Shown here: piece after piece, positions 12,370-35,630 of the stretch
Layout: the number at the start of each line of letters is the position of its first letter
Numbering within the stretch: position 1 is the stretch's first letter
Made by a program: the position numbers and the translations under genes
Notes under the pieces: generated by a model
Seen by the model: the letters and a program-made list of their open reading frames with translations, nothing else
Database searches by the model: none
What the model was told of the DNA's origin: nothing
Source of the DNA: Rhopilema esculentum
Taxonomy: Eukaryota
Reading direction: 5' to 3'
NCBI RefSeq assembly: GCF_013076305.1
Contig: NW_027019317.1
Span: forward strand, 14,431,651 to 14,495,650
Length of the DNA stretch: 64,000 nt

Positions 12370-13110
12370 GTACACTGGTTTGATTTTCATTGATCTAGAA
12401 AGGCATTTGATACAGTAAATCATGATATCCTACTAAAGAAGCTAGAAAAATACGGAATTTGTGGACTAGAGCTTGATTGGTTTACTTCCTACTTGCAGGA
12501 AAGAAAGCAGTTCTGCAGGTAAATTCAACTTCCTCCAGGATAAACGACATAACTTATCGTGTCCCCCAGGGGGCCTGTCTTGGCCCACTTCTGTTCCTCA
12601 TTTACATAAATGATCTACCATTCTGCCTAAACAAAGAAAAGGTCACCATGTATGCTGATGATACTGCCATATCACACTCCTGGAGATGCCTTTCTAAATT
12701 GCAAGATGATCTAAACCAGGATCTTGTGTATTTTCAGAACTGGCTACATGGAAATAAATTGTCTCTAAACGTTGTAAAAACGCAGTCTTTGATTATTGGA
12801 TCCAGACCAAATATTCAAAAGATCGAAAAGAAGACTGAAGCTAAGCCTAGTTTCGAAGTAGGTGAGCAAAAGATCAATATGATAACCGATACTAAGTATC
12901 TGGGAGTTCAAATTGATGACAAACTCCAATGGGATCGCCATGCTAAGGCACTACGAGCTCTCGGTCTTATTAAGCATGCCAATAAATTTCTTCTATCAGG
13001 GGCTTTGCACTGTATAGAGGAATTGTTGAGCCACATTTCAGTTATTGCTGCTCGGTTTGGGGTTGTTGCAGTGAAACCAAAATCAATCTCTCCAAAAAAT
13101 CCAGAATAGA
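12370..13110 (+). mobile_element. Non-LTR (LINE) retrotransposon fragment, reverse-transcriptase domain, 5'-truncated and frameshifted
   Basis: The frames read FIDLEKAFDTVNHDILLKKLEKYGI ... VPQGACLGPLLFLIYINDLP ... MYADDTAISHS ... LGVQIDDKLQWDRH. These are RT motifs of the CR1/Jockey/L2 type, including YADD. Confidence 0.8.
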
Positions 13111-13894: not shown

Positions 13895-16324
13895 TAGTGG
13901 AAATCCGGGGTTTAAACATCTTCGGAATTAATATTATTACACTGTTCTTTCATTCTTGTTTCAAGCATTTTTATAGAAAAGTGGCAGCTAAATTGAGATA
14001 TTTTAAAGGGGCCTGTGCAACCAGCATGCTTTTCGCGCTCGCATTTGTTTTGTTTTTCTAACTGTGTTCTTCTATGGAAGACAAAAATGGCGAGGAGAAT
14101 TCAATGGGAAATTTCTCGAATCAATTTAGCGCTTCAAATCGCTTTTGACAGCTTCTATTTGGTTTCATTTTGCGCGGAGCTTGTGCTAACAGCTTTCCAC
14201 CATTTTCATGGACCACGAAAATGGCCGCCTTCCCAGCTTACGCCCGCCAAGGCTACTGGTTGTCCACGCCCCATTAAGTCTTCTTGACTTAATATCCAGA
14301 TAAATTGATTCCAATTTGTTAGCTGCTTTAAATTAGGGGCGGTTCATTGGACTTCATTGAAGAGATAGTACCTTTTAACAGTAAATTCTGGACACACCAG
14401 AAGCGGACTGGCCCACCGGGACACCGGGAAATTTCCCGGTGAGCCCTCTGCCCCAAGTTATTCTTTTCAAAAACTTGAAAACTTTCAAAAGGCAAATAAT
14501 CTTCGCACATTTGGATAGGGGGATATTTCTAAAGGTATTTTAAAAGGGCGTCATCGCAAAATTTTTCTGCTCGCTTCGCTCGCAGGAGACCCTTCACTAT
14601 TTCTCAACAGAATATTCAACACTTTCCCCTCGTTTTGGTATTTGTATAGAAAAATCTCTACGTTCTCAGGACAATCCTGATAATATAGAAACTAAAATGC
14701 TAAAGCAGTCCAATCCTAAAAAAAACTGGATTCTGATATGCTTGTCGTGGATTGTGCTCCAAGGAAAATGGACTTGATTTAAAACTTTTGAATACTGTTA
14801 ATTTTTCTAGATATTTGATTACAACTTTGGAAGGTCTCTTTTTACACGTAGAGGTTCCTCGCCTTACACAATTCAGGATATTAACGTTAGTGGAATTGTT
14901 AAGGAAATAGACAGGTGTAGAATATCGTCAGCCACCTAATTCCTACTTTCACTAAAAACCTGATTAGCTTGTATTTTTTTAAAGCAAGTACGCCATACAT
15001 TAATTCGGTATCTGTTGAGGGGGTAGTAAGGGATTTCATTAGCTAACTAGCAGACTGCTTGTCAACTGACTGATGACTAATAATTTTGTGAAACCAATGA
15101 CTTACGACTAACCATATTATTTTTTTGACTTATGACTAATGCAAATTATTCCTAATGTCTGATATCCAATAACCGAGGGCTCACTCTTTGGAAAAATTAA
15201 CTGAGCACTACCCTGTGCTCTTCCAATCACAATGGTTGTAACTGGATAAAATGATCGATGTGTTGGGTATGGGAAGAGTATTGGGTATGGAAACGTTCAT
15301 ATATTACGTAATCAAAGATGGGGAGGAGAGGGGGACTTACACAAATGTTATGGCTATTACGTTCATTATGGCACTTTGTTGGAGTTTGTTAAAATAGTTG
15401 TTTAGGGAGAAGGGGATTTTTCAAATATTGCCGATTTTTGATTGCGTAGAATGTGCACATTCCTTGTGTTGTCTCTCTTGAATAATAGTCCTTTTTCTTT
15501 GGGCCATCAACTATTCCTTGATAGTAAAAACTGCTCTAGATAATACTTTCTGAACAAGACTTCCGTGGCAAGCTTTTTTATTTCTATTTTATTTTCTTCA
15601 ACTAACAACTCATAGTCATCTTGCTTTTTGTACGTTAAAACCAGGAGTTTCGTGCCAAAAAGAAATTATGACTAGCTGAAAAAAATCTTGTACAATGTTT
15701 AAAAACATTATGCAGAATTTGTTGAGGATTGATGTCCTCATGTATAAATCTCCTGAAAAATTTAATAGAATATTAAACCGGATGTTTGGAAAAAAACTGG
15801 TTTCAAATTTACAACTAGCTATTAAAGTATTCCATTCTTTCTTCAAATTGAAAGAATTTCTGTCCCGGAATAGAGACTGTACTTTTTCTTAAGAAAATAC
15901 CATGTCTACGCACAGTTACTCATACAGAAGGAGCCTATCGATGTACAAAATTATCAATTTGCACAAAACGGATGGCAGCAGAATCTCTTAGAATTCATTT
16001 GTCCAAGATATTTTATCAGATATCTTTCGGACAAGTCTACAGTTTTAAGCACATGTTCAATACCTTATCATAATTCCGCACGCTGATGTCTATCTTTTGC
16101 AAATGATTTGTAACTGCAGCGTAGAGGCAGGAGCAACACAGTCATTAAGCTAGCAGGTGCTGAGGCACCTCTTGACATTTTTCAAAGGTATGCTGCAAAA
16201 CTTTAAATATAACCGTTTGATGAGCTAAGGCGCCAATTGGCGCCCTTTTGCTTGCTTTTCCCGGTAGGTCGAATGGTAGCCAGTCCGCCACTGGGACACA
16301 CCATAAGTAAATGAAATTCATCTC

Positions 16325-19300
16325 CTAAAAACCTGTCGCTAAGCAGAAACTGCAATGTTTTTCTTCTCTAGGGATAGGGTTTTTACCAAAACGACCAGTT
16401 TCTACTTCTAGATTACGAGCGCTCAGTCTTAACCGTGGATGGCATCGTCTTTCGTTAAAGTCTTTGACAATGTCAAGATAGGATTCGAATTTGAAAAAAA
16501 TTTTAACTTGAGCATATGTACATAATTTCTTGTTTAGTACAACGTGTATTTTAAGTTTGTTCATTATTTCACTCGCAAAATGACTTCTAACCTTAGATTT
16601 TATCGCAGCAGTGTTATCGTTGTGACTGATTTCGTATCTGGTTTTCAATTTGTGGGTTTTCGATACCCAATTGGGGGAGTCATTGTTTGTGCCGTTCGAG
16701 AGCGCTTCAAATGTACCTATCTGGTTCCAAATCAAGAAGGGACTCAAGCCTGAACAAGAATTTTAAGATATTTATGTGCCTGCTACACTGAATGGAAATT
16801 CTGTCCAATTCAGCGTAAATAGCGTCAGTGCAAGTAGTAGATTTGACCCTGAGTATGCATTTACAAGCAGAGAGATGTAGACGTCCAAGGGAAGGCCACT
16901 TATCAAATCCCTAGATTTCTGAGCCATAATTTATGAAGGGTACTATCATCTGGTCAAATAAATATAGAAAGAGTCCAGGCTGTATGCTGTAAACCATTCA
17001 ACTTTTTGCATTTAGAAATTAAAGCAACATATGCTTTACCAGCTTTTTGCTTGACCTTTTCAATATGCTTGTTGTAAGAACCATTTGTCTTAAAAGTGAC
17101 ATCAAGATACTTGTAAGAATCACATTCTAAAACAGCATTATCTCCCAAGTACCATTTCTTCTTAGCTTTAGACTTCCGCTTGTTTTTTTTAAGCAGCATA
17201 ATTTTGGTTTTGTTTACATTAACTTCCATCTGAACTTTAGTTGTGAAAACATTTAACTTATCTAGTTGGGACTGGAGATCCTCTGCTGTTGTAGATAAAA
17301 GTATAAGATCATCAGCATACATCAAGGTATGAAAAACGTTTCGTCCAAGCTGAACATCCTTTGTATTTAAACAAATCGAATCGTTCAAGTTATTGAAAAA
17401 CATTGCAATAAGTATCGGGCTCAAAAGACAACCTTGCCTTACACCACGGTTGCAATCAAAAAAACTTGTAAGCCCGTCATTTGCTCTGGCGCATGATTTG
17501 ACTTTACCATAAAGTGTTGTAATTATTTTATGAAATTTACCGGAGACACCAAGATCGGGTAGCTTTTCAATCAATAAGGTGTGATTAACAGATTCAAATG
17601 CCTTTTTTAAATCTGAAGTGGTGACTTTCTTCCCTCTAAAATTTCTTCTATAATGGAGTTTAATCAGGGGCGCAGTGGCTGGGGGGGGGGCAGGGGGGGG
17701 ACAGCCGCCCCTCGCTGGCAAAAATTTTGTCGGATTGTCGGAAAATCCAACGTTTGTCGGATAATTTGAAATATTAGACAAAATGTAAGGTTTTCATCGA
17801 TCCTGTCCGAAAGGTCGCATATTTTTTTAAACCTGTCGTAAAATAGGGCATGCTCAACCCTTCTTACTTATTTTCATTAGAGTATTTATCGGAATTATCG
17901 CATTGCTGAAATTTGTAAAGGAAATTAACGCTCTGATCTTTCCGACAGTTAAAATTCAACTCAGTTCATTTCGAAATGAATTCGCTGGTGTTGTAGAAGA
18001 AGCAAAAAGTTAATATTTTCGCCATGACTTAGAAGAGGAAAATTTTGTCGAGCGACGAATACGCAGAAAGAAAAAGATGTCAGGGGAAAATTGCATAGAT
18101 GAATTAGAGGGAAATAGGGAATCCGTATATCATTGTGATTGTAGATACAGCTATCAGCTCAATGAATACAAGATTCACGTCTCATAAGGCGATTTTGACA
18201 GATTTTGCTTTGCTCAACCCCGAATGTTTTCAAAAAACAATTGAAAGGCAGTTGTGTGCAGTGTAATTCAAAAAGGTTGCGAAGAATAACGGCCTGGATG
18301 ACGAAAAATTAAGAGATGAGTACAGCTCTTTCGTCAATAATTACCGTAAATTTTGGAAAGTTGCAACCCTCTCCCGGCTGCAGGAGAAAGAGAAAACTTT
18401 TTAGTTCCATTGAGTTCTTCAGTTGATAATAAGTATAACCTGCAAAGTGCCTTTCCACAGCTGGTCCTTTACAAGGTTCTCTTCACTTTGCCAATAGGTT
18501 CAACAAACTATGAAAGAGCTTTTTCAAAGCTGAGGATTGTAAAAAAATCGGCTACGGTCAACGATGGGACAAGACCGCCTTTCCTCTCTGATAACAATCA
18601 ACGTCGAAAGTGATATTTTACAGTCGATAGACTATGGTGACATCATCGATTTGTATGCTGCCACATCTCTTTTGAGAAAGATGCTGCTTGAGTAACAGTT
18701 TATATAAATTTCAGTTAAAAGAAAACTATTCTTTTGGACGCGTTATATCTATTTAAGGTTTAGCATAAATAAATGCAAAGTAATTATGATGGGATTTAAA
18801 ATTTGCCAAAAAAACTTTTTGCTATAAACAGCTATAAACACTGACTTGACAGTTTATTGTCTAGTATAGCGAGAAGACTTGTAGGGTGTAAATTTATAAC
18901 TAGTTGCAGTTTTGTTTATAGCGATTTATATTTGGTAAGTTTTGTTAGAATAAAGGCTATTGTTGAACTTGAAGGTGTATAACGAACGATCCATTCGTTA
19001 ACGATTTCCAGATCCATTCGTGATATTGTAGTATCAAGTGTTGCAGTATATGCAGCAAGGGTAATCTTCAAGGAATATATTGAGAAAAAATTTGTCGGAA
19101 AAATCATAGTTTTATCGGAAAATTTTCAGCTTTGCCCCCCCAAAAAGTTAACTCCCACTGCGCCCCTGAGTTTAATGTAAAAAGATGATCAGAAGTTTGA
19201 AGCCCTTTTCGGTAAGCAATTTGATTTTCGTTTACAAGTTTGTAACCATCCAGTACTTCAATAAGTCTATCAAGAAAGACACCAAGAAACAGTTTGCCAA

Positions 19301-19478
19301 AAATACTAAGAAGGGTGATACCCCTATAATTATCGAGATCAGATTTTTCACCACCTTTAAATACAAGTACTATCATGCCTACTGCCCATTCCTTAGGAAA
19401 CTCTCCCGAGTCAAATATTTTATTGAATAATTTTGTGAAAACAATACAGACAGGGAATTTTGCATAACCATCTAGCAA
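16325..19478 (-). mobile_element. Non-LTR (LINE) retrotransposon ORF2 fragment (RT plus C-terminal region), interrupted by a nested hAT element at 17665-19168
   Basis: The ORF at 19104-19478 reads EFPKEWAVGMIVLVFKGG...YRGITLLSIFGKLF (RT N-terminal motifs). The ORF at 16954-17781 reads GVRQGCLLSPILIAMFFNNL...FHTLMYADDLILLSTT. The ORF at 16325-16747 reads RLRLSARNLEVETGRFGKNPIPREEKHCSFC, a CR1/L2-type C-terminal motif. Confidence 0.8.
17665..19168. mobile_element. Non-autonomous hAT-superfamily DNA transposon (about 1.5 kb) nested in the LINE RT ORF
   Basis: The 14-bp perfect TIR is CAGGGGCGCAGTGG at 17665 and CCACTGCGCCCCTG ending 19168. A perfect 8-bp TSD AGTTTAAT lies at 17657-17664 and 19169-19176. 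The internal ORF 18353-18613 ends ...LPIGSTNYERAFSKLRIVKKSATVNDGTRPP, which resembles the hAT C-terminal dimerisation motif. Confidence 0.75.
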
Positions 19479-20536
19479 CCTGCCTAACCCAAGTTTTTAA
19501 AGTTTAAATCATAAGAGCAAAAACCAATGATCATTTTAAGCCTTGGGAACATTCGGGCAAATGACCGGGCGTTTCCGGAAGCATGAAAAATGCACGGTCA
19601 GCAAAATTTCGAATTTCAAATTTTTCAAATCTAATGATACCATCAGAAAGAACTTGCAAAACTGAGCAAATAGTATGAAAAGAGCAATGTGATCTGACCT
19701 ATAAACAAAATGTAATGGCTGTAGAAACTTTTCGCTTTGTCAAACAACTTGCTTTCTGAAGTTTCTTTATAGTACAGACGCAGAGCTGTAAAATTGTGCA
19801 TGTTATATTAATGGCATAAAGTTCGGTACAAGTACACAATCTGATATGCTGAGTAAGATGAAATACATATCAAGCTTCAAAAATGCCCCAAAAGCTATTT
19901 TTAGACTGGGGTACTGGTACCTAGTCCTCTTTTAGGTATAGCACTACAACGTTTTAACTTTGCAAGCTATAAAATTGAAACATTCTTTCTGCCGTTATTT
20001 GACGTGCTGAATAAAATAAGATACAAAAACAGCTTTAAGAATTTCACAAAAAGCAATTTTCAGACTATTGTACTTGTAGCCAGTTCTGTATTGGGTCTTG
20101 CTCCACAGCTTTGTAACTATACAAGTTATACGACTGAAACTTTGTTTCCTGGTGTAATCCGAAGTGCTAGATAAAAGGAAACGTTGGGCTAGGTTTCCAG
20201 AATCTCAGTTCCACAAAAAATAAAGTTGTGGCCTGGATATCATCTTAATGTGACATCCCATCATTTATGAACAGGATTATGAACAGGAACATAATCCCTA
20301 AGATTGGATTAAAGAAGACGAAGCAGCAAAAAGTAACATAAAATTTTTCCATATTATTTGAGATTCAAAATACGATAATCAATAATTGCTCTAATTGTGA
20401 CGTGTAGTTAGTGCCAAGGCCTCAAAAGACGTTGCAGTATTGTAAAAAAGTGTACAGAAATACAAATATAATTATGTGAAATCGCTTATGTGAAATCACT
20501 ATTTTTTTCGTCAACATGTTCATCTCTGACCAGGTC

Positions 20537-20650
20537 CTATGGTGACTCCAGAGCACCAATCAGTCCTTGTGCAGTATTGAACAAGTTGATGGGCGATTCG
20601 CCATCAGTAATAAGTGTTGACTTTAAACCCAAAGACTGCAACAATTTCAC
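20537..20650 (-). CDS. MVP: Major vault protein terminal coding exon (stop codon TAG at 20537-20539 on minus strand)
   Basis: [37 protein letters not shown] matches MVP ([32 protein letters not shown]...). The acceptor is tcttttttAG|. The 15 exons sum to 2547 nt, 849 codons including the stop, with all intron phases consistent. Confidence 0.85.
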
Positions 20651-20878
20651 CTAAAAAAGATTTACCAAAATATGATTGGTTGCCTGTGCAATAATTCTGT
20701 TAGAAATATTTGAAAAGTCGTTGTAAAGCTGACAACTACCTTTAAATAAAGGAACAATTTCCTGATCTTAGAAATAAAATATTACTTTTATTACTTTTAT
20801 ACCAGACCATACCATATCTGTGTAATACAATACCAGAGAACACAAAAGGTGCTTGATTTTGACAGAAAAAAGGCATAC

Positions 20879-21067
20879 CTGCATCTCTGGACCTGCTGTT
20901 GCAATGGCCTGGATGGTATTTGCCCCAATGGAGTCAACCATTTCCTTGAACTTGGCGCTATCGATCTCTGCCATTTCACTTGCCTTCTTGATTTCAAGCT
21001 CGTTCTGCTCCTTCACATAATGCGTCTCCGCTTCACGGGCTTTTGTCAGCCTGCCGAGTTCTGAGTC
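20879..21067 (-). CDS. MVP: Major vault protein exon 14
   Basis: DSELGRLTKAREAETHYVKEQNELEIKKASEMAEIDSAKFKEMVDSIGANTIQAIATAGPEMQ matches MVP (...[27 protein letters not shown]). The acceptor is ttttactgtAG| and the donor is CAG|GTATGC. Confidence 0.85.
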
Positions 21068-21258
21068 CTACAGTAAAATACAAAACTAAAGCTCAGGTGA
21101 TTGTGTACAATTACATTAAAATATACAGCATGATCAGTACTTGGGCATCAAACTAATTTCAGGGAATACATTTTCAATTTAGAAATAAAGATTACAACAA
21201 AAACTGCATGAACTTTGTAACAAGAAAAAGAAGTATAAAATTTCACAAAGGAACAAAC

Positions 21259-21502
21259 CGCTTCAATCGATGCAGCTTGGGCTTTCAGTCTAGCTTGCTG
21301 CACAGCAGCCTCGCCTTCGATTCTCGAAGCTTCAGCTCGAGATTGCGCCTCTGCCTTCGCCTGCCCAGTGGACTCAACAGCAGCGCTCTGGGCTTGCAGC
21401 TCGAGTAGTTCTCTGCGTGATTTTTCAGCTTCAGCCTCATCTGAGATCTTCTGGCGTTCAAGTCTCCCTTTTGCTTCTTGTTCAAGCCGGTCAGCTTCAT
21501 GT
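21259..21502 (-). CDS. MVP: Major vault protein exon 13 (coiled-coil cap-helix region)
   Basis: (R)[81 protein letters not shown] matches MVP ([81 protein letters not shown]). The acceptor is gttgttgttAG| and the donor is |GTTTGT. Confidence 0.9.
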
Positions 21503-21791
21503 CTAACAACAACATTTTAACAAAATCGAATTGATAAAAAAACCAATCAAAACGCTATGCACGTGTCACATGTGGACAAGTCATTACTATTTGCCTGGAA
21601 AATATGGAAAATAAAACCGAAACGAGCTTACATTAACTTCTTAAGGGAGTGACTCTTCGTGCTTCTTAAGCTTCACAAAAGTTGTATCGTGATTTTATTG
21701 TTTCTGTCAAACTTGTTCATGAAACGAAAAACACAATGACGACAACAGCAACAGCAGCAACAATGGCAGAAACAAAACGATTGCAACTGAC

Positions 21792-22003
21792 CTTGCAGCA
21801 GCCTCTTGTGAGGCAGTAGTGATCTCGATTGCAAGCTGAACTGATTTCTGCAAAGCGTCTCGGGTGCGTTGGTCTACAGGCTCAACCGACTGAATGTCAA
21901 CACTCGTGATGTTGAGGTTGTTGGCAGGGAAGGTGAATTTGTCACGAACCTTCATCTTGTCATCAAAGCCGAACACAGAAGAGCGGATGATTTTGGCAGA
22001 GTT
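21792..22003 (-). CDS. MVP: Major vault protein exon 12
   Basis: [70 protein letters not shown] matches MVP (NSARIIRTAVFGFE...[38 protein letters not shown]). The acceptor is tcaatcaacAG| and the donor is AG|GTCAGT. Confidence 0.9.
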
Positions 22004-22239
22004 CTGTTGATTGAAATAGGAAGACCTTCATTAATTCATAAATTGGTGAATAAAACTCAAGGGTTTACAATAACAGATTCCAGGAAGTGGGTGATTTGGA
22101 GGGGAAAATTTGTTGGAAGAAGATAGCAACAAGGTAGGGCCATGAAAACAACAATAAGGTCACAAGCATGTGACTGATACACTAAATAGGCATATGAAAC
22201 ACAAAGTGCTTTCACCTTAAGGCCAAGCCCTCCTCTCTT

Positions 22240-24105
22240 TTAGACAATAAAAGAGACGAGCATAAGAAACGAGCAAACGGGGATAGCAAGATAGATGAGC
22301 AAAAGAGAAAATCAAAAGAGATGAACAAAAGAGATGAACAAAAGAGATGAGCAAAAGAGATGAGCAAACAAGAAAAGAAAAAGAGATGAAAAAAACAGAT
22401 GAGCAAACAAGATGAACAAATGAGATGAGCAAAAGAGATGAGAAAAAGAGATAAGCAAAAGAGATAAGCAAAAGAGATTAACGAAAGAGATGAACAAACA
22501 AGATGAGCAAACGAGATGAGCAAAAGAGATGAGAAAAAGAGATAAGCAAAAGAGATAAGCAAAAGAGATTAACGAAAGAGATGAACAAACAAGATGAGCA
22601 AACGAGATGAGCAAAAGAGATGAGAAAAAGAGATAAGCAAAAGAGATAAGCAAAAGAGATTAACGAAAGAGATGAACAAACAAGATGAGCAAACGAGATG
22701 AGCAAAAGAGATGAGAAAAAGAGATAAGCAAAAGAGATAAGCAAAAGAGATTAACGAAAGAGATGAACAAACAAGATGAGCAAACGAGATGAGCAAACGA
22801 GATGAGCAAAAGAGATGAACAAAACAGATCAACAAAAGAGATGAGCAAACAAGAAAAAGAAACGAGATGAGCAAACAAGAAAAACTAAAGAGACGAGTAA
22901 ACAAGAAAAGCAAAAGAGATGAGCAAACAAGAAAAACTAAAGCGATGAACAAAAAAGATAAACAAAAGAGATGAGAAAAAGAAATGAGCAGAAGAGATGA
23001 GCAAACAAGATGAGCAAAAGAGATGAACAAGACAGATGAGCAAAATATAAGCAAAAGTGATGAGGAAAAGTGATGAGCAAAAAAGATGAGCAAAAGAGAT
23101 AAGCAAAAGGGATGAGCAAAAGAGACGAGCAAACAAGAAAAGCAAAAGAAATGAACAAAAGAGATGAGCAAAAATATAAGCAAAAGTGATGAGAAAAAGT
23201 GATGAGCAAAAAAGATAAGCAAAAGGGATGAGCAAAAGAGATCAGCAAAAGTGATAAGCAAAAGTGATGAGAAAAATTGATGAGCAAAAAAGATGAGCAA
23301 AAAAGATGAGCAAAAGAGATAAGCAAAAGGGATGAGCAAAAGAGATGGAAAAAACAGATAAGGAAAGAGAAAAGCAAAAGAGATGAGCAAACAAGAAAAA
23401 CTAAAGAGATGAGCAAAAAAGATAAGCAAAAGAGCTGAGCAAAAGAGACGAGCAAACAAGAAAAGCAAAAGAGACGAACAAGACAGATGAGCAAAAATAT
23501 AAGCAAAAGTGATAAGCAAAAGTGATGAGAAAAAGTAATGAGCAATAAAGATAAGCAAAAGAGAAAAACAAAAGGGATGAGCAAGAGAGAGGAGCAAAAG
23601 GGATGAGCAAGAGATGGAAAAAACAGATGAGCAAAAGAGATAAGGAAAAGAAATGAGCAAACAAGAAAAGCAAACGAGATAAGTAAAGGGATGAGCAAGA
23701 GAGAGGAGCAAAAAAGATGAGCAAAAGAGATGAGCAAACAAGAAGAGCAAAAGAGACGAACAAGACAGATGAGCAAAAATATAAGCAAAAGTGATAAGCA
23801 AAAGTGATAAGAAAAAGTAATGAGCAATAAAGATGAGCAAAAGAGATAAGCAAAAGGGATGAGCAAGAGAGAGGAGCAAAAGGGATGAGCAAGAGATGGA
23901 AAAAACAGATGAGCAAAAGAGATAAGGAAAAGAAATGAGCAAACAAGAAAAGCAAACGAGATAAGTAAAGGGATGAGCAAGAGAGAGGAGCAAAAAGATG
24001 AGCAAAAGAGAGGAGCAAAAGATGAGGAAATGGTATGGTCAAAAAAGATGGACAAAAAAGATCGGCAAAAAAATGAGCAATCCATATGAGCAAACAAAGC
24101 ACATA
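22240..24105. repeat. About 1.9-kb purine-rich minisatellite (10-12-bp units, consensus about AAGAGATGAGC / AAACAAGATGAGC) in MVP intron 11
   Basis: There are hundreds of imperfect tandem copies, seen directly in the sequence. Six-frame ORFs of up to 478 aa across it are repeat artefacts ([11 protein letters not shown]...). Confidence 0.95.
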
Positions 24106-24118
24106 AATAAGCACTTGC

Positions 24119-24260
24119 CTTGTGGAAGTCGTCAAATTTGACCCCGGCAACAGCACCTCTCACTCTCGATGCAATTGCTTTACAGAGATCACCAACAAAA
24201 TCTGGCACAGAGAACAACTTAGCTTTGTCTTCGTCACTCTTTGGATCAACAAAGAAGTTC
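24119..24260 (-). CDS. MVP: Major vault protein exon 11 (followed by a GC-AG intron)
   Basis: (W)[47 protein letters not shown] matches MVP ([48 protein letters not shown]). The acceptor is ccttgcAG|. The only in-phase donor is AAG|GCAAGT, which is the non-canonical GC donor consensus. Confidence 0.8.
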
Positions 24261-24534
24261 CTGCAAGGCAAGCATAAGCTCAACATTTAAGTCTGGGTGC
24301 AAAAAGCCTCAAAGCAAAAAAAACTAAAGTATTGTAATTGACAGAAAGTCTCAAGGCTGGGGCACATGTATCATTTGCATTGGCACATAGGTATCGTAAA
24401 AACCAGATGTAACTCTAAATTTCAATCTAAAATTTTCTTTCAGCTAAATAATATGAATGAAAGAAATAAAAACCAAATGCGTTGATTAATATCGACTAGA
24501 AATGTAAAAATGAATAGCAAACATATAGACTCAC

Positions 24535-24732
24535 CAATTGTATGAAAGCTGAAGCGACAGTCTTGCGTGATCTGCCGTTTCCACAACAACAATATCAGTA
24601 CAGAAGTCTGGGCCGAGGAGGAGACAAAGGGCTTTTATGACATTTGGTCTCTTGGGCTTGCCCCCAGACAGACTTAACAGAGTGAATTGCTCATCAGGTC
24701 CGAGCATTACAAGGTCTGGTCCAAACACAACC
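24535..24732 (-). CDS. MVP: Major vault protein exon 10
   Basis: (R)[65 protein letters not shown](W) matches MVP ([67 protein letters not shown]). The acceptor is cgtttttcAG| and the donor is TG|GTGAGT. About 8.4 kb of intron separates this exon from exon 9. Confidence 0.9.
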
Positions 24733-25259
24733 CTGAAAAACGACAATTCATAATTGTCATCCTCTGAGAATTTATTGCTATATGTTTGGCATGCAAAAAC
24801 TACTTTGAAGGAAAGACAACAACAGGATTCTTACGACTTATATGATTGATACTGGAAACAGAAATTTGACATGGTAAGAGTGTACAGATTTCTATAAGAA
24901 AAAAGGTAAATTATCAGTCGCTTTAGCTGTGAAAAGCAACGAAATGTAAATTCTGCTTTTGCAACTTTTAAGGTTGAAAGATTTACTAGCTATAGAAAAC
25001 ATTTCATCTTAACATTTTAATATACTTTAACATAAAATAAAAATTACTGTCTACAGGCCTGCTCGATGCCGCATAGGCAGAGACGCTATTTGGTGTATAG
25101 AACAGGACGGGAATTGCCGATACATTCAGGAACATGACAACAAAATGTAATAACAACCATAGAGAAACTAGTTCCAACAATTGCCTGGAAACCACCAGAA
25201 CATGTGCTACCACTAAAACGCTTATTGACAAAATTGCATTTACCAAGCCTGCACTGATA

Positions 25260-26830
25260 CGGTCTACTTAAGTATTCCCTTCAGATTTCAGTGACCATTA
25301 TTTAATGGGCTGTATTCGTAAATGCAACCATCAGAAGTTTCCACCAAAGGAAATTAAATGGCGTGATTACATCCGATAGAACGTTTCAAAAATAAACTGC
25401 AAGCTCTCCACTGCAGACTGGTCTGACATTCACGAAACGAACGATGTTAATAAGGCTTGGAAGGTTTTTCACCAGATAAGACGTAGTATCTTTGTGAGCA
25501 CGCACCAATAATTGTAAAGCGAGTGAAATCCAAACCAGCTCCATGGCTTACCCCAGAGATTAAGGCTGCTATGAATGACCGAGACAGGCAAACCTGCAAC
25601 AAAAACCTGCAACACCTGATGGAGTTTATGGAACCTTAAAAAAACTGCGTAGAAAGGAAGCAACCGAACTCATCACCTATGTCATATTATAAACATGTCG
25701 ATCAACACTGGCGTGGTCCCTTCAGCATGAAAAATGGCCAGAATCATTCTTATTCATAAATCAGGACCTACATCAGACTTTGAAAATGACTGTCCTATCT
25801 CAGTTTTGCCCTCAGTGTCGAAAATTATAAGAGAAAATTGTTCATGAGCAGCTTATAACTTTCTTAGAAGAGAAAAATTTGACATATAGTCACCAGTTTG
25901 GTTTCCGAAATAAAATGTGTACTGAACATGCCGTAACTTTATTGCTTGATTCTATACGGCAGACGGTTGATAAAGGAAATATGGTTGGTGCCTGCTTCGT
26001 TGATTTATCTAAGGCATTCGACACTATCAGCCATTCAAATTTGTTAACCAAGCTACCTGGATATGGTATCCACGGTCGAGAACTTGCCTGGTTCACCGAT
26101 TACTTATTTCACCACAAAGCTATGGTACAGTACAAGCAAGCGCGCTCTGACTTATTTAACATTGACTCGGGAGTGCCACAATAGTCAATCCTAGGCCCCT
26201 AACTATTTTGCTACTTTTTAATGATCTAGTCGATGTGGTCAAGCTCAGGTTCTCAAATATGCAGACGACACCGTTGTTTACATTAGTGGTAGAAATGTGA
26301 AGGAAATGTCGAACTTGCTGTCAATCGATTTATCTTCTATTTCCAAATGGTTTGAAGAAAATGAACTCCTTATGAATTTTTAAACAAGGTAAGACTGAGG
26401 CTTTACTATTTGGAACTTCCAAAAAGACCACGCAGAACATCGAGGACATTGAGATTTATGCAAAGAAGTCAAAGATCTTTGTAACGTAAGAATACAAATA
26501 TCTTGGAGTGCCTGTTAATAGCTCCCTTAACATGACACCATTCTTTGACAAATGTTACAAGAAAACGTCGTCACGTCACGTCACTTGCGAAACTTGATGG
26601 ATGTTGATGTTGCCAAGTCGATCTACCAAACCATGGTACTACCAGCGTTTACATACTGCGGATTACACCTACTTTGTCTTACAGCTACACAGGAAGGTAA
26701 ACTGGTCTCTCTACACAAAAGAGCAGAGCGAATAGTAAAATCCAAGGAAATTCGCTCTGTCAGCAGTGCAAACCAGAAGCGAGCCTGCCAATTTGTAAAT
26801 CTTGCCTCGATGGAGATGTTATAGAGCCTT
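25260..26830 (+). mobile_element. Degenerate LINE ORF2 fragment (pre-RT linker plus RT) inside the 8.4-kb MVP intron 9
   Basis: The frames read DWSDIHETNDVNKAWKVF, then KSKPAPWLTPEIKAAMNDRDR, then FGFRNKMCTEHAVTLLLDSIRQTVDKGNMVGACFVDLSKAFDTISH...GIHGRELAWFTDYL, then a stop-ridden ...SGVPQ*SILGP*LF... continuation. Confidence 0.75.
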
Positions 26831-27539
26831 AAACATTACTTAAAAAAATGCAAAGATGGTATTACTGCCTAAGATTAGAACAGAATATGGGAGTAAAAGT
26901 GTTTTCATTTTACTGACGGAAAGCTGTTCAACATGCTTCCTTTGGAATGTCGCAGCCTAAATAGACTAGACTTTTCGGACTTTTTAGATGACTACTACAA
27001 GTAATCACAAATCACTGTAAAGACAATCTAGTTCCTTCCTTTACCCTCTTAGTTACATTTTTTATTTTTATATTTTTACTTTACTGGACACACATTTATA
27101 ACAGCTTTAGGTGGTTGAAGTTTTTATCTAGTTTAAATATTCGTTCATTATTATTATTATCATTGTCATCATTAGAGCTTCAAGTGTCAAATATACATAT
27201 CATTCAAAAACGATATATTTCAAAATATCCAATTCGCTTAAAGTTTTGGCAAAACCATTTGCACGAGAAAAAGATTATGCTGGGTATTTTCTCAATGTCT
27301 GAATAGATTAAAGGTATGAAATAAATTAAGCTTCACTGCACACTTTAAACATAAAAGCCTCGAGAGAAGTTAAACTTGAGATTACCCATTGGCAAACAAA
27401 AAAGGACCAGATTTTGAAATAGAAAACCACGAGATTTAACAAAGTAGATTTCTCAAAATTGTCTTTGTAACTTGAAGAGCTCTATAAACATCAAAACTGG
27501 TTTCATCAAATCGAATGACAATGTTAGCACAACTTGTTG

Positions 27540-28850
27540 ATACAGTCAAAAAGGCTCTTGTGGTAGAACTGAGGATAGGTGAAGCAAGTTTATGGTCTGG
27601 TAGTAAAACGGTTCTATGCTAGATAGAAAACAGGAATGAGTGGATTTTGTAAAACACAGAGTGAATGAGACATTGAAGGTGTCAAAGAAGGAAAATTGAG
27701 GATGTTGTAAGTGTCGGGAGAATTCAGCAGATGTAGGGTCAAGAGGAATAGAAGCTGAAGGATTGAAGGAACATAAGTTGTTGTGGAAGGAACCAGTTGG
27801 ATTCTGGGTCCTAGGGAGGGATAGCCAACAAAATAAAGGGAAATTGAGACAAAGGAAAGTAAAGAGAGATGAAATCGTCAGTTGTCATGCAAATAAATGT
27901 TGTTGACACACCAAGCGTAGAAAATGTGATTGACATAGGTCTCTAATTTGAACAAGTTGCATAAAGCAACTGCTAAGGTTTATTCGTAACTTGAAGGCAG
28001 GAAAGAAAGAGAATTTCCGAAAAACAAGGGGAGTTAAGAGAAGAAGAATGCTAGGAGCAGAAAGAGTGTGATTGTGTCTGCTCAAGAAGGTTTGAAGAAG
28101 GAGAGTGATCTTTGAGAAATTAGAAAGGGAGCTTCAGCTAGTAAACCACAAAGGAGTGCTTTAATCTATTATTATTATGTTACGTATAATCGTGCTGTCA
28201 TATTTTTGTTAAGTTTGAAGATTTTTTAATTTCAAGCATTTTTCCATCCGAAATCAAAAACGTTAAAAGGGTATTATTGGCGATTTTTGGGTCTGCAAGA
28301 GATTACAAAGGGGTGATATTTAAGAGCTTGCCCATTTAGGAGCTTGCCCATTGCCGATTTGCCAGACTTTCGTGTAAGACAAGCACCGGCACTTTCTAAT
28401 GCAAAAACGGACTTTGCTGGACCGCTTTTTGTAAAGGAAAAGAGGGGGCACTTTAAGTAAGTGCTTCATTACAGCGTTTTCCTGCTGTGTGACGTCAGCA
28501 GTACATCTGGAGCTGGTTCAAGTTATGTCAGATTCAAAATTGGTTGGCGGTTATTATAGCAAAGGTTCCCTGGATAGGAGGGTTTAATGAGAGAATGGTT
28601 GGAACTGCGAAAATATGTTTGGGGAAGGAGCTAGGCAGCGCATGAATTATGTATTATGAACAAAAAACCATTCTGATTGAGGTTGAGAACACCATTAACT
28701 CCCAACCTATTACATATGAATACGATGAAGCGGGAGGAGGGGCATTGAAACCAGCACATTCCACAAAGGATTCGAGAGTTCAAGCGAAGACCTTCAAGAG
28801 TAAAAGCAAGACAACACTTGTAGGCATTTTCTATCGTTATCTACTTTAAG
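27540..28850 (+). mobile_element. BEL/Pao-type LTR-retrotransposon pol fragment (RNase H/integrase region), pseudogenised, inside MVP intron 9
   Basis: LWSGSKTVLC*IENRNEW ... ENSADVGSRGIEAEGLKEHKLLWKEPVGF matches the BEL RNaseH-integrase junction (SDSxxALxWI...NPADxxSRG...LWWxGPxWL). QAPALSNAKTDFAGPLFVKEKRG matches the integrase zinc/core start (VGVDFAGP). LIEVENTINSQPITY matches the integrase C-terminal (EAVLNSRPLT). Stops and frameshifts are present. Confidence 0.6.
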
Positions 28851-29664
28851 TTACTGTCGCAGAGAACAGTACTAATTATCGATAGCTAGTGATGAAAAGT
28901 GCAAGGACGAATGGAAAAATGGCACTTAGGAATATTCTCCAACAGGAAACGATGAAAAAAACTTGGCTACAACGATTTATAGTTGGTGGTCAAGAAGTGA
29001 TGCGAAAAGTGGGAACATCGTTGAAGATCTCTCCTCAGTCAAGTTCCCGTGCGAAAAGGTAAACTAATAATAAAAACTGAAAATTTTTAAATTAGGCTAA
29101 ATACCTGCATCTTCATATACCTGAATACCTGAATCGTTCCGTTCCCGTTTGAACAGTAAACTTTACTGCTCAAAATTTGGAAAGCTATTGGAACATTACA
29201 TACAATAAACACTTGCATATACGAAGCTAGCAGATTAAGAATCTACAGACTGAAATTATGAATTCAAACTCCATCTTAAAGGAACCATCCACCCCAAAAT
29301 CTGTAATAGGCTCTTATTGTAGAGAAAATTACATTAAAACTCTAGTTGCTTTGTCATTGTCATCGAACTTTCAACTGATGTTATAGATGCTTTAAAATAG
29401 CTAAATAAATGCAGTATTCAGTACTCTGTTAAGTATTAATATTCCAAAGCAAAAGTGCTTAAATGTTGACATTTTACTTAAATTCATGTCTTTGGGAGAT
29501 CCTTTTGCTTAACGTTCTAAACATCTTCTGTAGGCGGTGGGGACTTCCACTAAGAAGTTTGAAATGGAACAAAAAAATGGTGAAAGCCCAGCACCGAGTA
29601 AAGGCGGGATTCCACTTCAGCGATTCTGGTCGCGCGACTGCTGTTCTGGACATGCGCAACTAAC

Positions 29665-30960
29665 TCAGTGGCCAGTGGCGTAGCGTCCATGTATGCTAAG
29701 CTCGCGGCGCAAGCGTAAAAAATTCTAAACAATTTCTAAAATTCTTGCAACACTTCTACGGGTAATAAACACATTGTAGTGTTGAAGTCAATGCAAGAAA
29801 TTTTCCGCAATGAACGGCTATTCTTTCTGGTCATATGCAGCATGCAGTGAACTCCAGCGCAAACATACCAATTAATTATTTTTCCAAGTAAACAGATCGC
29901 CAAAAATTGTGAAATTCGAAAAATCTGAAAAACTGAAGCCCCTCCACATCACTCTTTTTGCCTGCCTAAAATAGGATAAACATGCGATGCTCCAGTGCAG
30001 CTTCAATGCAGCTCGAGAGAAGCTTCTGAGAGCGGTGAGAATTTTCCGGACTGGAGCTTGCGGTCAGCCTTAGCGCAAGCATTCCCAAATATTCAATAAT
30101 ACACAACATTTTTCTGCCTATAAGCTGCTTTTTGCAAATAATTTTTGCGTGATACCTCATTTCAAATTTAATTATTTTTTATTCTTTACTTTGTCACTGT
30201 TAAAAAGAGAAAAAATTTCATCAAAGCTGGGTCAAAGTCTATTTGTCATGATCTGCATTCCGTATTTCAAGTCAAAAGGCTTGCCAGTATAGTCAGAATT
30301 TACGGACCAGGGCATGCGGTAGACCTGAGCGGAAGCCTTGCCAAATAGTTGATGATTTGCAAGGAACAACCTTCTGAAACCATTACACATGAAAGTATCT
30401 TCAATTCTAACAACTCTCACAGCTCTTTATTGTCATCTTTGTTAACTATGATGTTAAAAATGAGCAGAAACTTTTGCTCCTGTTCGCTCTGGCTCTGCTC
30501 TGCAGAGAGCTCCTCCTTACGGGAATCCCCAGATGCATTAGAACATATAATAATTTTTACATTAGGTGGGCATTAGGTGGTGCCTTTTCTTGACGAATAT
30601 GAATAGGAATAAGATATTTTGCGAAACAGTTTTAGCACTAGGAGTTATTCTGAAAATTTTTGCAAAACAACTAAGCTTTTTTCAAGAACTTTTCGCATGG
30701 GTTATAATTTTTCCCTTGGTCCACTTCTTTTTTCAACGTGCTTCAGAGCCCCTGATGCAGAGAATAGACACCTTGATTGATTAGAGTTAGAGTACAAACA
30801 ATTTGTTATTTTCAAAATCAAAATTTATTATCACGATTATCATTAGTTACCACTTGTATTTTTAAGGAGCTGAAATAACGATTACATTCATTCAACATAG
30901 CCGTATATTTTATGCTACCGCATGCCTAAGCTCTGCGCTCACGCTTCGCCACTGTCAGTG
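29665..30960. mobile_element. Possible hAT-like non-autonomous element with CAGTGGCG termini (boundaries uncertain)
   Basis: CAGTGGCCAGTGGCGTAGCG at 29665 faces CGCTTCGCCACTGTCAGTGGCAG at about 30940-30965 in inverted orientation. The direct subterminal motif GGTCGCGCGACTGCT/GGTCGCGCGACTACT lies outside each end. No clean TSD was found. Confidence 0.3.
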
Positions 30961-31205
30961 GCAGTGCTTCCTCATTCCACTGGCGGTCGCGCGACTACTT
31001 TTGGGAGTTGAATAGATGTTAATAGCTCAATTGGGCCAGCCGGTTGCTCGATTTAGTGTCCATATCGATACCGTAGACCTATCTAAGTCGAGAGGCGTCC
31101 ATTAACACATCTCAGGCAGTTATGTAACATTGAAATGTGCATAAAATACATTTTGGTTAGCGCGAAGGCCAGCATAAAAATTCTGTAGTTTAACGTGAAC
31201 AAACC

Positions 31206-31553
31206 ATGGAAGTTGTTAAAATACTTATAACATCACTTTTGGGGTTTATTGCTAAAACCTGCGATTCTGCTATCCTGAAACCTGAAAACTTGAAACCTAC
31301 TAAAACCTGCGGTTCTGCTATCGAGCAGCATTTACTGGAAAACCAAGATTGTGCAAAAAACTATAAGGACGACATGTTTCGGATTATTGGTAAAGCCCGA
31401 TCGTTGTTCCATCTATCTATCTACATAAGCACGCCCAAAAGTTTTGGAACCTATCAACATAAGCATGAAAAGACCGCTATTGTGTACACAAAAGGGGTTC
31501 GCTTTCACCTTAGGACTAAATTGGTAACATTCTTTATAGGCAAGCGGCACTGA
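31206..31553 (+). other. Repetitive TE-like ORF with the SAIEQHLLENQDCAKNY motif, copy 1
   Basis: The ORF reads ...KTCGSAIEQHLLENQDCAKNYKDDMFRIIGKARSLFHLSIYIS.... A second, truncated copy lies at 50588-50700 on the minus strand (IDSAIGQHLLDNQDCAKFY) with about 75% DNA identity over the motif. Confidence 0.4.
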
Positions 31554-33162
31554 TTGGTCAACCTCAACAGTCATGTGCTCGTGTTTCTGATTGGCCTATT
31601 TCGATCCACAACTGGGTATATATATTTATTAGCGTAGAGTTTTCGATCTATGTTCTGATGTATTAAACTCTGAAGAGTGTCAGACGAAAAGCTTTAGTTT
31701 TCTCAAATTTTTGCTTTTTTCAAAGCCATTTTCAAATTTTGTACCACCAAAAGATTTTTTGTCTGGTTTACGTTAAATGCCGCATTACCCTTTTTTGTTT
31801 TCTTTGGCGCTTATCCAAAAATTCAACTTCACGCTCTGCTACACTGAGAAAAGTATCTGGTTTAAACGGACCAATTGGCTTTTTTTCAGAGAAAAAAATT
31901 TGTTATTATGGGGGCTTTTTTGCGAAGGAAAAAGGAACCTTCTCATTTCCTTTCCCCCGTCCTTCATCCTTTGACTCTCTGAGGCTCTGGCACCCAGGGT
32001 AGGGGGCAACATACTTCAAAAGTTCCTCAAGACGATCAGCGCTCATCCTAAAATGTTGTAAGAAGTATTCCTTGTCGAAAAGTTTCATCTCTCAAAAACC
32101 TTTCATCAAAAGGTTGGAATGCGATTACCACTCATGCATTAGGTTGGCATAGTTTGTGTAACGTCATGTACGTTAGCTGACTATGATCTAGTGCCGACCG
32201 GGCACTGACAGCGATCACGTGACCAAATCTCGATTCGCGAAAGTGGAAACCCGCCTTAAGAACCAATTTAAGAGACTAAACTGCCTCTTTTCCTTAATAA
32301 TATCCAGTACATAAGAACCTATTCGGCTGACGCGTAAAATCTTAGGTTATTATTCGCGAATAGTTACTATAATCAATCGAGTTTGAACGTGACAATCTAA
32401 TGGGCGAATGGAAACGTCAGTAGGGCCGCTTTTGTTACGTCAGTATCCGATTAAGCAATCGGTTTAATTCTGTTAAAGCGGATAAAAAGAAGAGATTACA
32501 AAACATGAACAAGTTATTAAGACAGTTGCCAAGCAATAAATCTAAGCCAATTTGTAGTTATTTGAGGCGACATTCCTCTCACCAATAATATTGATAAACA
32601 GGGAAAGGTATTAAAGGCAGTCTGTCCCCTATTGTGCTCAACTTTATTTTCACGGGAGAGAAATTCATGCACCGTTGAGCTTGATCGATAAACGATTTAA
32701 ACCAATCAGAGACACATGGATTCCAGAGCTTTTGAATCAAATGGCTGTGTTCCCGTTGAAGTGAAGCTATGGCTAGAAAAAGTTTGTTCCCTGTTTGGTT
32801 CCCTGTAGAAAAAGTTTGGTTTTTGCGACAGATATGTCAACAGCGAAAGGAAATGCCTCTGTTATCATCAGTCAATTTCAGTAATGAAATCTTATTGCCA
32901 TTCCCGATAGCTTTTTGCTCGCAGTTTCAAATGTCGTCCACTACAGTAACTAGGCCAGCCAAATCCGTTGAGGCGGGGAGATATATTGTTCATATTGGCC
33001 AATCATTGAGGGGACAGACTGCCTTTAAATCTGCCGCAGCCAGAGCCTTACCAGTGAGCTTTTTTCAACCTCTTTATTCTTGAACAGGGGGGTACGCCGT
33101 GGATTTCAAGCTGGAGGGGCCGTAATAAACAATGTACAAAAAGTGAAATCGTTGATACATAC

Positions 33163-33551
33163 CTTGCTTTCTTTTCTTTGTAATCATAAATCTGAACTGC
33201 TGCATTATGGGGCACTCTGAACGTAACTACTTTTGTTTTATCTCGTGCCTTCCCTGTATCACTGCCTCCACCCCTTTCACTACGCCCCGAGAGGGGGTCC
33301 TTTCCTTGGGTTATCAAGTCTTCTACAACAGGAGGTAGTGTCTTCTCCCATAATTCCTCGTCCTGGGTTAACATGTAGGTGTTGCCTATTTCTGCCCGAA
33401 CCTTGCCAGTCCGTATGTCACGCACATATACCCCCTCGTTGGCATCGAGTGGAATAGCCGTTCTTCTGCTAACGACTTCTACTTCGACGGGGGGCACATA
33501 CTCGCAAGGACCTCTGATCATCCACTTATCACCAGGCTTGCGTTTAATCTT
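33163..33551 (-). CDS. MVP: Major vault protein exon 9 (largest coding exon)
   Basis: [70 protein letters not shown]...[22 protein letters not shown](R) matches MVP ([63 protein letters not shown]...[19 protein letters not shown]). The acceptor is tatccgatAG| and the donor is AG|GTATGT. Confidence 0.9.
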
Positions 33552-33774: not shown

Positions 33775-34975
33775 ATTCGACAGGGCCGAAAGGGCAGGAA
33801 GGGCAGGAAGGGCAGGAAGGGCAGGAAGGGCAAGGGCAAAGGGCAGGAAGGGCAGGAAGGGCAAAAAGGGCAGGAAGGGCAAAAAGGGCAGGAAGGGCAA
33901 AAAGGGCAGGAAGGGAAGGGCAAAAAGGGCAGGAAGGGCAAAAAGGGCAGGAAGGGCAAAAAGGGCAGGAAGGGCAAAAAGGGCAGGAAGGGCAAAGAGG
34001 GCAGGAAGAGCAAAAAGGGCAGGAAGAGCAAAAAGGGCAGGAAGAGCAAAAAGGGCAGGAAGGGCGAAAAGGGCAGGAAGGGCAAAAAGGGCAGGAAGGG
34101 CAAAAAGGGCAAAGAGGGCAGGAAGGGCAAAGAGGGCAGGAAGGGGAGAATGCAAAAAGGGGAGAATGTAGAAAAAGCAGAATGTAGAAAGGGCAGAATG
34201 CAAAAAGGGGAGAATGCAAAAAGGGCAGGAAGGGCAAAAAGGGCAGGAAGGGCAAAAAGGGCAGGAAGGGCAAAGAGGGCAGGAAGGGCAAAGAGGGCAG
34301 GAAGGGCAAAAAGGGCAGGAAGGGCGAAAAGGGCAGGAAGGGCAAAGAGGGCAGGAAGGGCAAAGAGGGCAGGAAGGGCAGAAAGGGCAGGAAGGGCGAA
34401 AAGGGCAGGAAGGGCAAAGAGGGCAGGAAGGGGAGAATGCAAAAAGGGGAGAATGTAGAAAAAACAGAATGTAGAAAGGGCAGAATGCAAAAAGGGGAGA
34501 ATGCAAAAAGGGGAGAATGCAAAAAGGGGAGAATGCAAAAAGGGAAGAATATAGAAAAGGCAGAATGTAGAAAAAGCAGAATGTAGAAAAAGCAGAATGT
34601 AAAAAAAGCAGAATGTAGAAAGAGCAGAATGTAGAAAGGGCAGAATATAGAAAAAGCAGAATGTAGAAAAAGCAGAATGTAGAAAAGGTGGAATGTAGAA
34701 AGGGCAGAATGTAGAAAGGGCAGAATATAGAAAAAGCAGAATGTAGAAAGGGCAGAATGTAGAAAGGGCAGAATGTAGAAAGGGCAGAATGTAGAAAAAG
34801 CAGAATGTAGAAAAAGCAGAATGTAGAAAAAGCAGAATGTAGAAAAAGCAGAATGTAGAAAAGGTGGAATGTAGAAAGGGCGGAATGTAGAAAGGGTAGA
34901 ATGTAGAAAGGGCGGAATGTAGAAAGGGCGGAATGTAGAAAGGATGGAATATAAAGAGGACCGGACGTAGAAAGG
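33775..34975. repeat. About 1.2-kb compound minisatellite in MVP intron 8: an 18-bp GGGCAGGAAGGGCAAAAA array followed by a 16-bp CAGAATGTAGAAARRG array
   Basis: This is seen directly in the sequence. Two arrays with different unit sequences sit side by side, with gggagaatgcaaaaag transition units between them. The long ORFs across it (up to 490 aa) are repeat artefacts. Confidence 0.95.
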
Positions 34976-35630
34976 GCAGAAAGGACAGTAAGAATAGAAG
35001 GAATAATCTTTGTGGTAACTTTGTTGTTTGCCAAGACGAGGGGGAAATTTTTCCCTAGATTAGCCACGTTTAAAAGAAACAGCGATAGGCAATAACTAAT
35101 GATGTGATATGGTGTTATTCCCCAGGAGGCCTTGCAAAAACCAAATTGCATAATTAAAATCTATGATTAGAAAAAATTTACAACGTTGAATGAATGAAAA
35201 ACTATAAGATGCTTTTACGTAATCATGGAGTTTAAGAAAGAGGGGCTAGTCTACCGTAATGTTGTAGATTACTGCAAACTTTTGGTTCATGAAATGAAAA
35301 TGTTTTTTCGCCAATTTTGGGAAAAAGGAATGTTAGGGGATTTGCAATGTGATTATGACTTTATAAAACCTTAAAGAACATGGCAAACTTCTTTTGAAGA
35401 TTTAAACACCATGGCTGTTTTAGGTCAGAGTTATTCCATCTGCTAGTATTCAATCTTCTGAACTTTGTAAATATTTCACAAAAAAGCCGCCATCTTTGAT
35501 AAAGCAAGCATTAAAGAAATACAACAATAGCTATTCTGGGCAAACTTGGGCTAACAATACCGGAAAGACTGCGAATCCTGGCCAACAAAAGAGACAAGGT
35601 GAGACACTTGAAAACTATGTAGATTTTCAC

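Follow-up and report, generated by a model that had tools for sequence, protein, structure and literature searches.

A non-autonomous hAT element and a second hAT-like element nested in a decayed LINE downstream of a major vault protein gene

The locus and its interrupted LINE

The window analyzed here is a 64-kb stretch of DNA that carries a major vault protein gene. This gene is encoded by the minus strand, its exons spanning 33230 to 20549, and its best named match is the protein of Nematostella vectensis (80% identity), which suggests a cnidarian genome. A LINE, likewise on the minus strand, follows the last exon downstream at a distance of about 0.85 kb and is present in three separate parts. 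The 5′ part (19177 to 19670) encodes the N-terminal region of the reverse transcriptase (RT); the copy is 5′-truncated, and its true 5′ end is at or beyond 19670. The middle part (16302 to 17656) encodes the RT core with the RVT_1 domain and the C-terminal region of ORF2; it corresponds to residues 687-1131 of a full-length homologue (P0193), read in three frames and with an in-frame stop. The 3′ part of ORF2 (14278 to 14389) is aligned up to residue 1167 of the same homologue. The 5′ and middle parts are separated by an element of 1504 bp (17665 to 19168), the middle and 3′ parts by an element of 1896 bp (14398 to 16293). A search of the whole 64-kb window against Rfam returned no match.

The minus-strand translation of the reconstructed empty site matches RVT_1 with E = 2.8e-30, and the RT query retrieves 315 homologues at E ≤ 1e-10. 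The homologue P0193 is 1191 aa long and has both an Exo_endo_phos and an RVT_1 domain, i.e., an APE-type endonuclease and an RT; among solved structures it is nearest to human LINE-1 ORF2p (E about 1e-37). Both P0193 and a further full-length homologue, P0106, possess the endonuclease, which is absent from the window copy. The tblastn alignment of P0193 starts at its residue 577, at position 19445, and residues 1-576 have no match there in the window. Truncation at the 5′ end is typical of LINE copies. Judged from the sequence, the absence of the endonuclease is consistent with such a truncation, not with a different LINE family. The host LINE thus shares RVT_1 with APE-type LINEs, including human LINE-1 ORF2p, and differs from a full APE-type LINE in having no endonuclease, in being frameshifted and in being interrupted twice. 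With both elements removed, tblastn reveals at least four frameshifts and two in-frame stops. The LINE may have been dead before the hAT element entered it, or it may have decayed later. The only other fragment of this LINE family in the window (57373 to 57601) is 86% identical to 19448-19670 and ends short of the insertion site.

Six aligned homologues are uninterrupted across the site of the 1504-bp element (...KGYQTSDHIFTLRxIIENxFxNxKxPLYVCFVDFKKAFDSV...), where the window sequence reads ...KGLQTSDHLFTLN followed by SIIEEILEGRKSPL. The tblastn segments of four full-length LINE homologues stop at the edges of the element. After its in-silico excision, a single segment (residues 577-680 of P0193) spans the junction. 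Since the homologues are colinear and one segment runs across the excised junction, the 1.5-kb segment is an insertion and not a part of the LINE.

An earlier description of this DNA, made from the letters alone and called here the sequence-only reading, presented the LINE as cleanly split, with HLFTLN rejoining IKLHYRRNFRG in frame. The split is indeed clean, the RT is restored by removing the element and one copy of its target site duplication (TSD), and the quoted peptides are all present in the translations, but a count of the frames, like the alignment of the homologues, rules out that these two peptides join in frame. In the reconstructed sequence, HLFTLN is read in frame 2 and IKLHYRRNFRG in frame 1, and tblastn places its segments in frames -1 and -3. 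HLFTLN in fact continues into SIIEEILEGRKSPL, in agreement with the homologue consensus DHIFTLRxIIEN...PLYVCFVDFKKAFDSV. IKLHYRRNFRG results when the nucleotides for SIIEEILEGRK are read in another frame. This frame turns into the RT frame only past a separate deletion of about 14 nt, about 17 codons on, at YVCFV of the homologues.

Ends, transposase remnant and subterminal repeats

The 1504-bp element starts with a terminal inverted repeat (TIR) of 14 bp, CAGGGGCGCAGTGG (17665 to 17678, plus strand), and finishes with the exact reverse complement of this sequence (19155 to 19168, minus strand). Direct reading gives an identity of 14/14 that ends at base 15. Flush with the TIRs are the two copies of an 8-bp TSD, AGTTTAAT (17657 to 17664 and 19169 to 19176), identical at 8/8 positions. 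Perfect 14-bp TIRs and an exact 8-bp TSD had been claimed for the element, and both can be read directly at its ends. Its extent had been given as 17665-19176; the start of this range is correct and the end is not, since the range comprises the element (17665 to 19168) plus one TSD copy.

For the 14-mer TIR with at most two mismatches, 0.06 matches are expected by chance per 64-kb window. The window contains three matches, the third being a two-mismatch site at 35938, and as many were given by 0 of 100 shuffles. Flush identical flanks of 8 bp bring in an extra chance factor of roughly 4^-8. A pair at 35810-35951 was considered as a further copy and rejected (10/14 match, no TSD). No second copy of the 1504-bp element was found within the 64-kb window. 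The length of the TSD and the short TIRs are both those of hAT elements, in which TIRs are 10-25 bp long (PMC3942097).

Inside the element there is a decayed C-terminal remnant of a transposase, about 260 residues and a stop codon (17888 to 18695, plus strand), and the strand of the element is set by this remnant. The peptide YERAFSKLRIVKK, from which a remnant of the hAT C-terminal dimerisation domain had been proposed, is found in plus frame 2 of the six-frame translation. The proposal holds: after frameshift correction, the translation of about 18389-18692 scores 23.3 bits against PF05699 (Dimer_Tnp_hAT), where the Pfam gathering cut-off is 21.4. An intact relative of 481 aa (P0153) aligns by tblastn to 17888-18692 with its residues 216-481; this alignment runs over several stop codons and requires the frame to be switched three times or more. 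A composite query built from the remnant retrieves 29 homologues (best E = 1e-68), nearly all of them with PF05699. A name is attached to just one of these homologues, ‘zinc finger MYM-type protein 1-like’ of Hydra vulgaris (P0018; 32% identity, E = 2.8e-13).

The reconstructed transposase of a coding relative (L001, see below) matches the window through residues 602-793 only; therefore, the zinc-finger and catalytic parts are absent from the window copy. In particular, the window copy has no intact RNase-H-like catalytic domain, a feature of autonomous hAT elements. Since its transposase is limited to the C-terminal part and contains stops and frameshifts, the window copy is non-autonomous. 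A sequence search of PDB with the reconstructed L001 transposase returned no solved hAT transposase, so the placement within hAT is based on Pfam domains only.

The hexamer T[GA]TCGG occurs seven times in the element (0.97 expected), and 0 of 2000 shuffles reach seven. A left cluster (17728 to 17760, plus strand) has copies starting at 17728, 17736 and 17755, with an additional copy to the right of it at 17887. A right cluster (19093 to 19118, plus strand, in the same orientation as the left one) has copies starting at 19093 and 19113. All the relatives share the hexamer, at distances of 40-230 bp (left end) and 55-80 bp (right end), and its positions are conserved across family copies, including L001 and L007 of roughly 4 kb. 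We infer that these repeats are candidate binding sites, probably recognized by the transposase.

A second insertion in the host LINE, which does not figure in the sequence-only reading, is the hAT-like element at 14398-16293. It is non-coding, and no protein similarity was found in this interval. It is flanked by a perfect 8-bp TSD, GGACACAC (14390 to 14397 and 16294 to 16301), and its TIRs, CAGAAGCGGACTGGC and CAGTGGCGGACTGGC, agree at 13/15 positions. The removal of 14398-16293 restores the LINE ORF2 (...GDEFHLLMVCP joined to EFTVKRYY...), colinear with the homologue. When both elements are removed, one tblastn segment (residues 1114-1167 of P0193) crosses this second junction, HLLMVCP/EFTVKRYY. 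In view of the similarity between its TIR and the TIR of the 1504-bp element (CAGNNGCG.A.TGGC), we regard the second element as a related hAT-type, MITE-like one.

Relatives in other samples

Copies ending in the same TIR, the existence of which the sequence-only reading had made a matter for checking, do occur in other genomes, at unrelated sites and with perfect 8-bp TSDs of their own. The 14-mer CAGGGGCGCAGTGG ends the copies L002, L004, L005, L006, L008 and L009. Several family copies at unrelated sites come from the ENA sample ERZ25067906. Among them are a copy of 1681 bp with the identical TIR and the perfect 8-bp TSD GACTGGTC (L002) and a locus recovered twice, also with the identical TIR and with the perfect 8-bp TSD CCCTTCTT (L004 and L005). 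The same sample contains a copy of 2341 bp with a TSD of 6/8 (L009), a copy with degenerate ends (L003) and a right end only (L006). The window copy has 73-83% nucleotide identity to L002-L006 and its own internal deletion breakpoints. Other repeats common to the window and to the ERZ25067906 loci are merely 75-87% identical, so this sample represents a related but different species.

L008, on a Tara Oceans contig, ends in the identical TIR and has an intact C-terminal ORF of 228 aa (P0001). We rejected it as an autonomous partner of the window element: its contig opens within the 5′ subterminal region, and the 228-aa ORF follows at once, so it is itself an internal-deletion copy. The intact 481-aa relative, P0153, falls into the same 90% cluster as P0001 and reaches into the catalytic domain; it lies on a 1.9-kb contig. 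Among the relatives recovered there is no full-length copy with both ends and with exactly CAGGGGCGCAGTGG as TIRs. The recovered members of the identical-TIR subfamily are deleted copies and the 481-aa ORF on its short contig only.

Coding relatives are 4.0-4.5 kb long. Their transposases, of about 940 aa, are near-intact or intact and have DUF4371 and Dimer_Tnp_hAT domains, with PF05699 scores of 35-37 bits. L001 (4459 bp) has the TIR CAGTGGCGCCGTGG, a TSD of 7/8 and one frameshift; L007 (3964 bp) has the TSD GATATGAT (8/8) and one in-frame stop. Elements of 3964 bp are also found on seven JGI metagenome contigs (L011-L017), with 99.3-99.9% mutual identity where compared. L011 has the TSD CTCATTTC (8/8). 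L015 lacks a 229-bp GT..AG intron and has an uninterrupted ORF of 964 codons with DUF4371 and Dimer_Tnp_hAT. L010, with the TSD CATTTCCT (8/8), belongs to a related subfamily. L001, L007 and L011 share with the window element the TIR consensus CAGNNGCGNNGTGG, the neighboring G/C runs and the subterminal T[GA]TCGG; their TIRs differ from those of the window element at 2-4 of 14 bases.

With DUF4371 and then Dimer_Tnp_hAT, L001, L007 and L015 are similar to other DUF4371-bearing hAT transposases (‘ZMYM1-like’ of Hydra, P0018; BuT2, PMC3942097), whereas the identity of these relatives to any named protein is about 32% only. BuT2, which has DUF4371 and hATC, is a Tip-group element (PMC3942097). 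Precomputed Pfam matches of the relatives also list FAM200-ZBED5_RNase-like, and at the level of domain matches this points towards Buster-type relatives. The target consensus of Arensburger et al. 2011 is reportedly nTnnnnAn for Ac and nnnTAnnn for Buster. The eight TSDs collected (AGTTTAAT, GACTGGTC, CCCTTCTT, CATTTCCT, GATATGAT, CACCAAGY, CTCATTTC and GGACACAC), a small sample, fit neither consensus clearly.

Origin, age and meaning of the insertions

We conclude, with a probability of about 0.93, that a non-autonomous hAT element, probably moved in trans, is nested in a decayed, 5′-truncated LINE, and that a second hAT-like element also entered this LINE. The nesting of a hAT element in a LINE RT ORF was already the central proposal of the sequence-only reading, and the TIRs, the TSD, the PF05699 remnant and the restored RT all agree on it. 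The segment of 1.5 kb could in principle be native to the LINE, as an intron or an extra domain, or its TIRs and direct repeat could be coincidental. Only one LINE copy in the window spans the site, which gives the idea of a native segment some room. However, LINE copies with such a segment had been named as the observation to look for, and ten homologous ORF2 proteins (six in the alignment and four in the tblastn comparison) run colinearly through the site and do not have it. Besides, the segment stands alone at non-LINE sites in other genomes, with other flanks and its own TSDs. Coincidence is opposed by the low chance expectation of the TIR, even with two mismatches allowed. We therefore treat both variants as refuted, their probability being negligible. 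It is also very improbable, though slightly less so, that the element belongs to another superfamily of DNA transposons with 8-bp TSDs (e.g., P elements). A TSD of this length is not by itself unique to hAT, but the remnant passes PF05699, the full-length relatives carry DUF4371 together with PF05699, and the TIRs are short and begin with CAG, as is common among hAT elements.

The intact ends had also been taken as a sign of a relatively recent insertion, with an autonomous partner with the same TIRs perhaps still active in this genome. We consider a recent insertion combined with a live partner unlikely. It would agree with the TSD (8/8) and the TIRs (14/14), which are identical to the family consensus elsewhere, and with the intact P0153, which shares 90% identity or more with P0001; the contig of P0001 ends in the identical TIR. 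It would also agree with the nearly identical copies of about 4 kb of a sister subfamily in another sample, with their open 964-codon ORF. However, the 44 intact bases (16 of the TSD and 28 of the TIRs) bound the post-insertion divergence just to less than about 6.6% at 95%. L002 and L004 from ERZ25067906 are 11.5% apart though both keep perfect TSDs and TIRs; thus intact ends do not imply youth, and a recent date is not established. Divergence between the window copy and the recovered relatives is 17-27% throughout, all of these relatives come from other species, and the window has no second copy. The intact or near-intact relatives are all from other samples, and those with both ends have TIRs that differ at 2-4 positions.

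Besides the window, a long-read host/holobiont assembly and a Tara Oceans contig contain the identical 14-bp TIR. It is a more doubtful idea still that the lineage with CAGGGGCG..GTGG TIRs is a currently active hAT family in marine invertebrates, possibly horizontally transferred. If this were true, a live autonomous partner might exist here, and with it a possible vector for cnidarian transgenesis.

Transposases of hAT elements (Hermes, Ac/Ds) bind the ends of the element, excise it and insert it at an 8-bp staggered cut, the repair of which produces the duplication. The insertion in the window would have used the same cut-and-paste chemistry, by analogy with Hermes and Ac. The history of the locus would begin with an APE-type LINE, 5′-truncated, which inserted on the minus strand near the major vault protein gene and started to decay. 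Later the non-autonomous hAT element would have integrated into the RT-coding region of the LINE; the nesting makes this insertion the younger one. Identical-TIR short copies, together with transposase-coding relatives of about 4 kb elsewhere, suggest that the element is an internal-deletion derivative moved in trans. The transposase would have been supplied by a full-length relative of about 4 kb, as an enzyme of about 940 aa with zinc fingers, a DUF4371/RNase-H-like catalytic domain and a C-terminal hAT dimerisation domain. Such an enzyme would recognize the 14-bp TIRs, and the T[GA]TCGG repeats near the ends are probable further recognition sites. The excised element would then have been joined to an 8-bp staggered cut at AGTTTAAT, and the repair of this cut would have given the TSD. 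In a third event, the second, non-coding hAT-like element would have entered the 3′ part of the LINE likewise.

The window element is similar to Ds as compared with Ac, and to the deletion derivatives of BuT2 (PMC3942097), in its 8-bp TSD, short TIRs and conserved ends. In these derivatives, too, the coding middle is deleted, and copies have differing breakpoints and TSDs (PMC3942097). Unlike them, the window element keeps the C-terminal end of the transposase internally. It also differs from classic MITEs by its larger size of 1.5 kb.

The locus is a case of ordinary transposon layering, not a new kind of element, and it matters little beyond annotation. Within these limits, the order of events at the locus is obtained, with the LINE first and two hAT-type insertions after it. 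The ends, the TSD length and candidate binding repeats are defined for a hAT family whose only named homologue is ‘ZMYM1-like’ of Hydra, at 32% identity, and attention is drawn to a sister subfamily whose transposase, which bears an intron, appears to be intact. Annotation of this region should treat the pieces of RT and transposase on the downstream side of the major vault protein gene as repeats to be masked, not as genes.

A second insertion in the host LINE and other mobile-element debris

The 5'-truncated LINE that carries the non-autonomous hAT element also harbors a second nested hAT-like element, which is non-coding and lies in the 3' part of ORF2 (14398-16293, 1896 bp; 14390-16301 with the duplications). 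This element is flanked by a perfect 8-bp duplication (GGACACAC), and its inverted repeats, CAGAAGCGGACTGGC and CAGTGGCGGACTGGC, match at 13 of 15 positions. Taking it out restores the C-terminus of the LINE ORF2.

LINE debris is abundant in the window. Further reverse-transcriptase-like fragments and a LINE fragment are found at 12397-12956, 25729-26220, 49049-49459, and 57373-57601, all on the plus strand. The reverse-transcriptase-like fragments have 22-57% identity to the homologues of the host LINE, and the 230-bp fragment at 57373-57601 is 86% identical to positions 19448-19670 of the host LINE. Additionally, a 142-bp stretch (35810-35951) has hAT-like inverted ends, CAAGGGCGCCATGG and CAGGGGTGCATTGG (10 of 14 positions), and contains the TTTGTCGAAA motif internally; no target duplication was found at its edges. 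Chance could explain this resemblance, or the stretch could be a degenerate relative of a MITE.

The major vault protein gene and tandem repeats

The minus strand carries a major vault protein gene with the PF11978 shoulder domain, whose exons lie within 20549-33230. The best named match is from Nematostella vectensis (80%), and the last exon lies approximately 0.85 kb upstream of the LINE/hAT cluster. Two exons of this gene flank a 13-bp tandem repeat (unit AAAAGAGATGAGC, 22249-24080, about 142 copies with 75% matches), and thus the repeat is presumably intronic. Both its GC skew and its AT skew are strong. Purine-rich tandem arrays with AGGGCAGGA-type units (periods of 9, 18, 16, and 64 bp) and a separate 26-bp tandem array (10.6 copies, 95% matches) are located at 33782-34981 and 54146-54420.

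Subterminal repeats and metagenomic relatives of the hAT element

The T[GA]TCGG subterminal repeats of the window's hAT element (17728-17892 and 19093-19118) have the same orientation at both ends, i.e., they are not mirrored; therefore, the two ends are asymmetric outside the 14-bp inverted repeat. This orientation is kept in the family, as it was also observed in the relatives L001, L002, L004, L007, and L009.

The JGI metagenome contigs L011-L017 (Ga0187735_135441 and others) contain a sister subfamily of 3964-bp elements that are 99.3-99.9% identical to each other where compared. Left and right flanks are exchanged from one contig to another, a pattern that points to chimeric assembly of many nearly identical copies. 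One of them, L015, precisely lacks a 229-bp GT..AG intron, retains both inverted repeats, and has an open ORF of 964 codons. For a copy of a DNA transposon, such a spliced form with both inverted repeats is unusual; L015 may stem from a read-through transcript in a metatranscriptome.

A contig from a marine metagenome (L008, Tara Oceans, run ERR1726736) encodes an intact transposase C-terminus of 228 aa. The 14-bp inverted repeat at its end is exactly that of the window element, and therefore the DNA of planktonic or marine eukaryotes contains members of this family.
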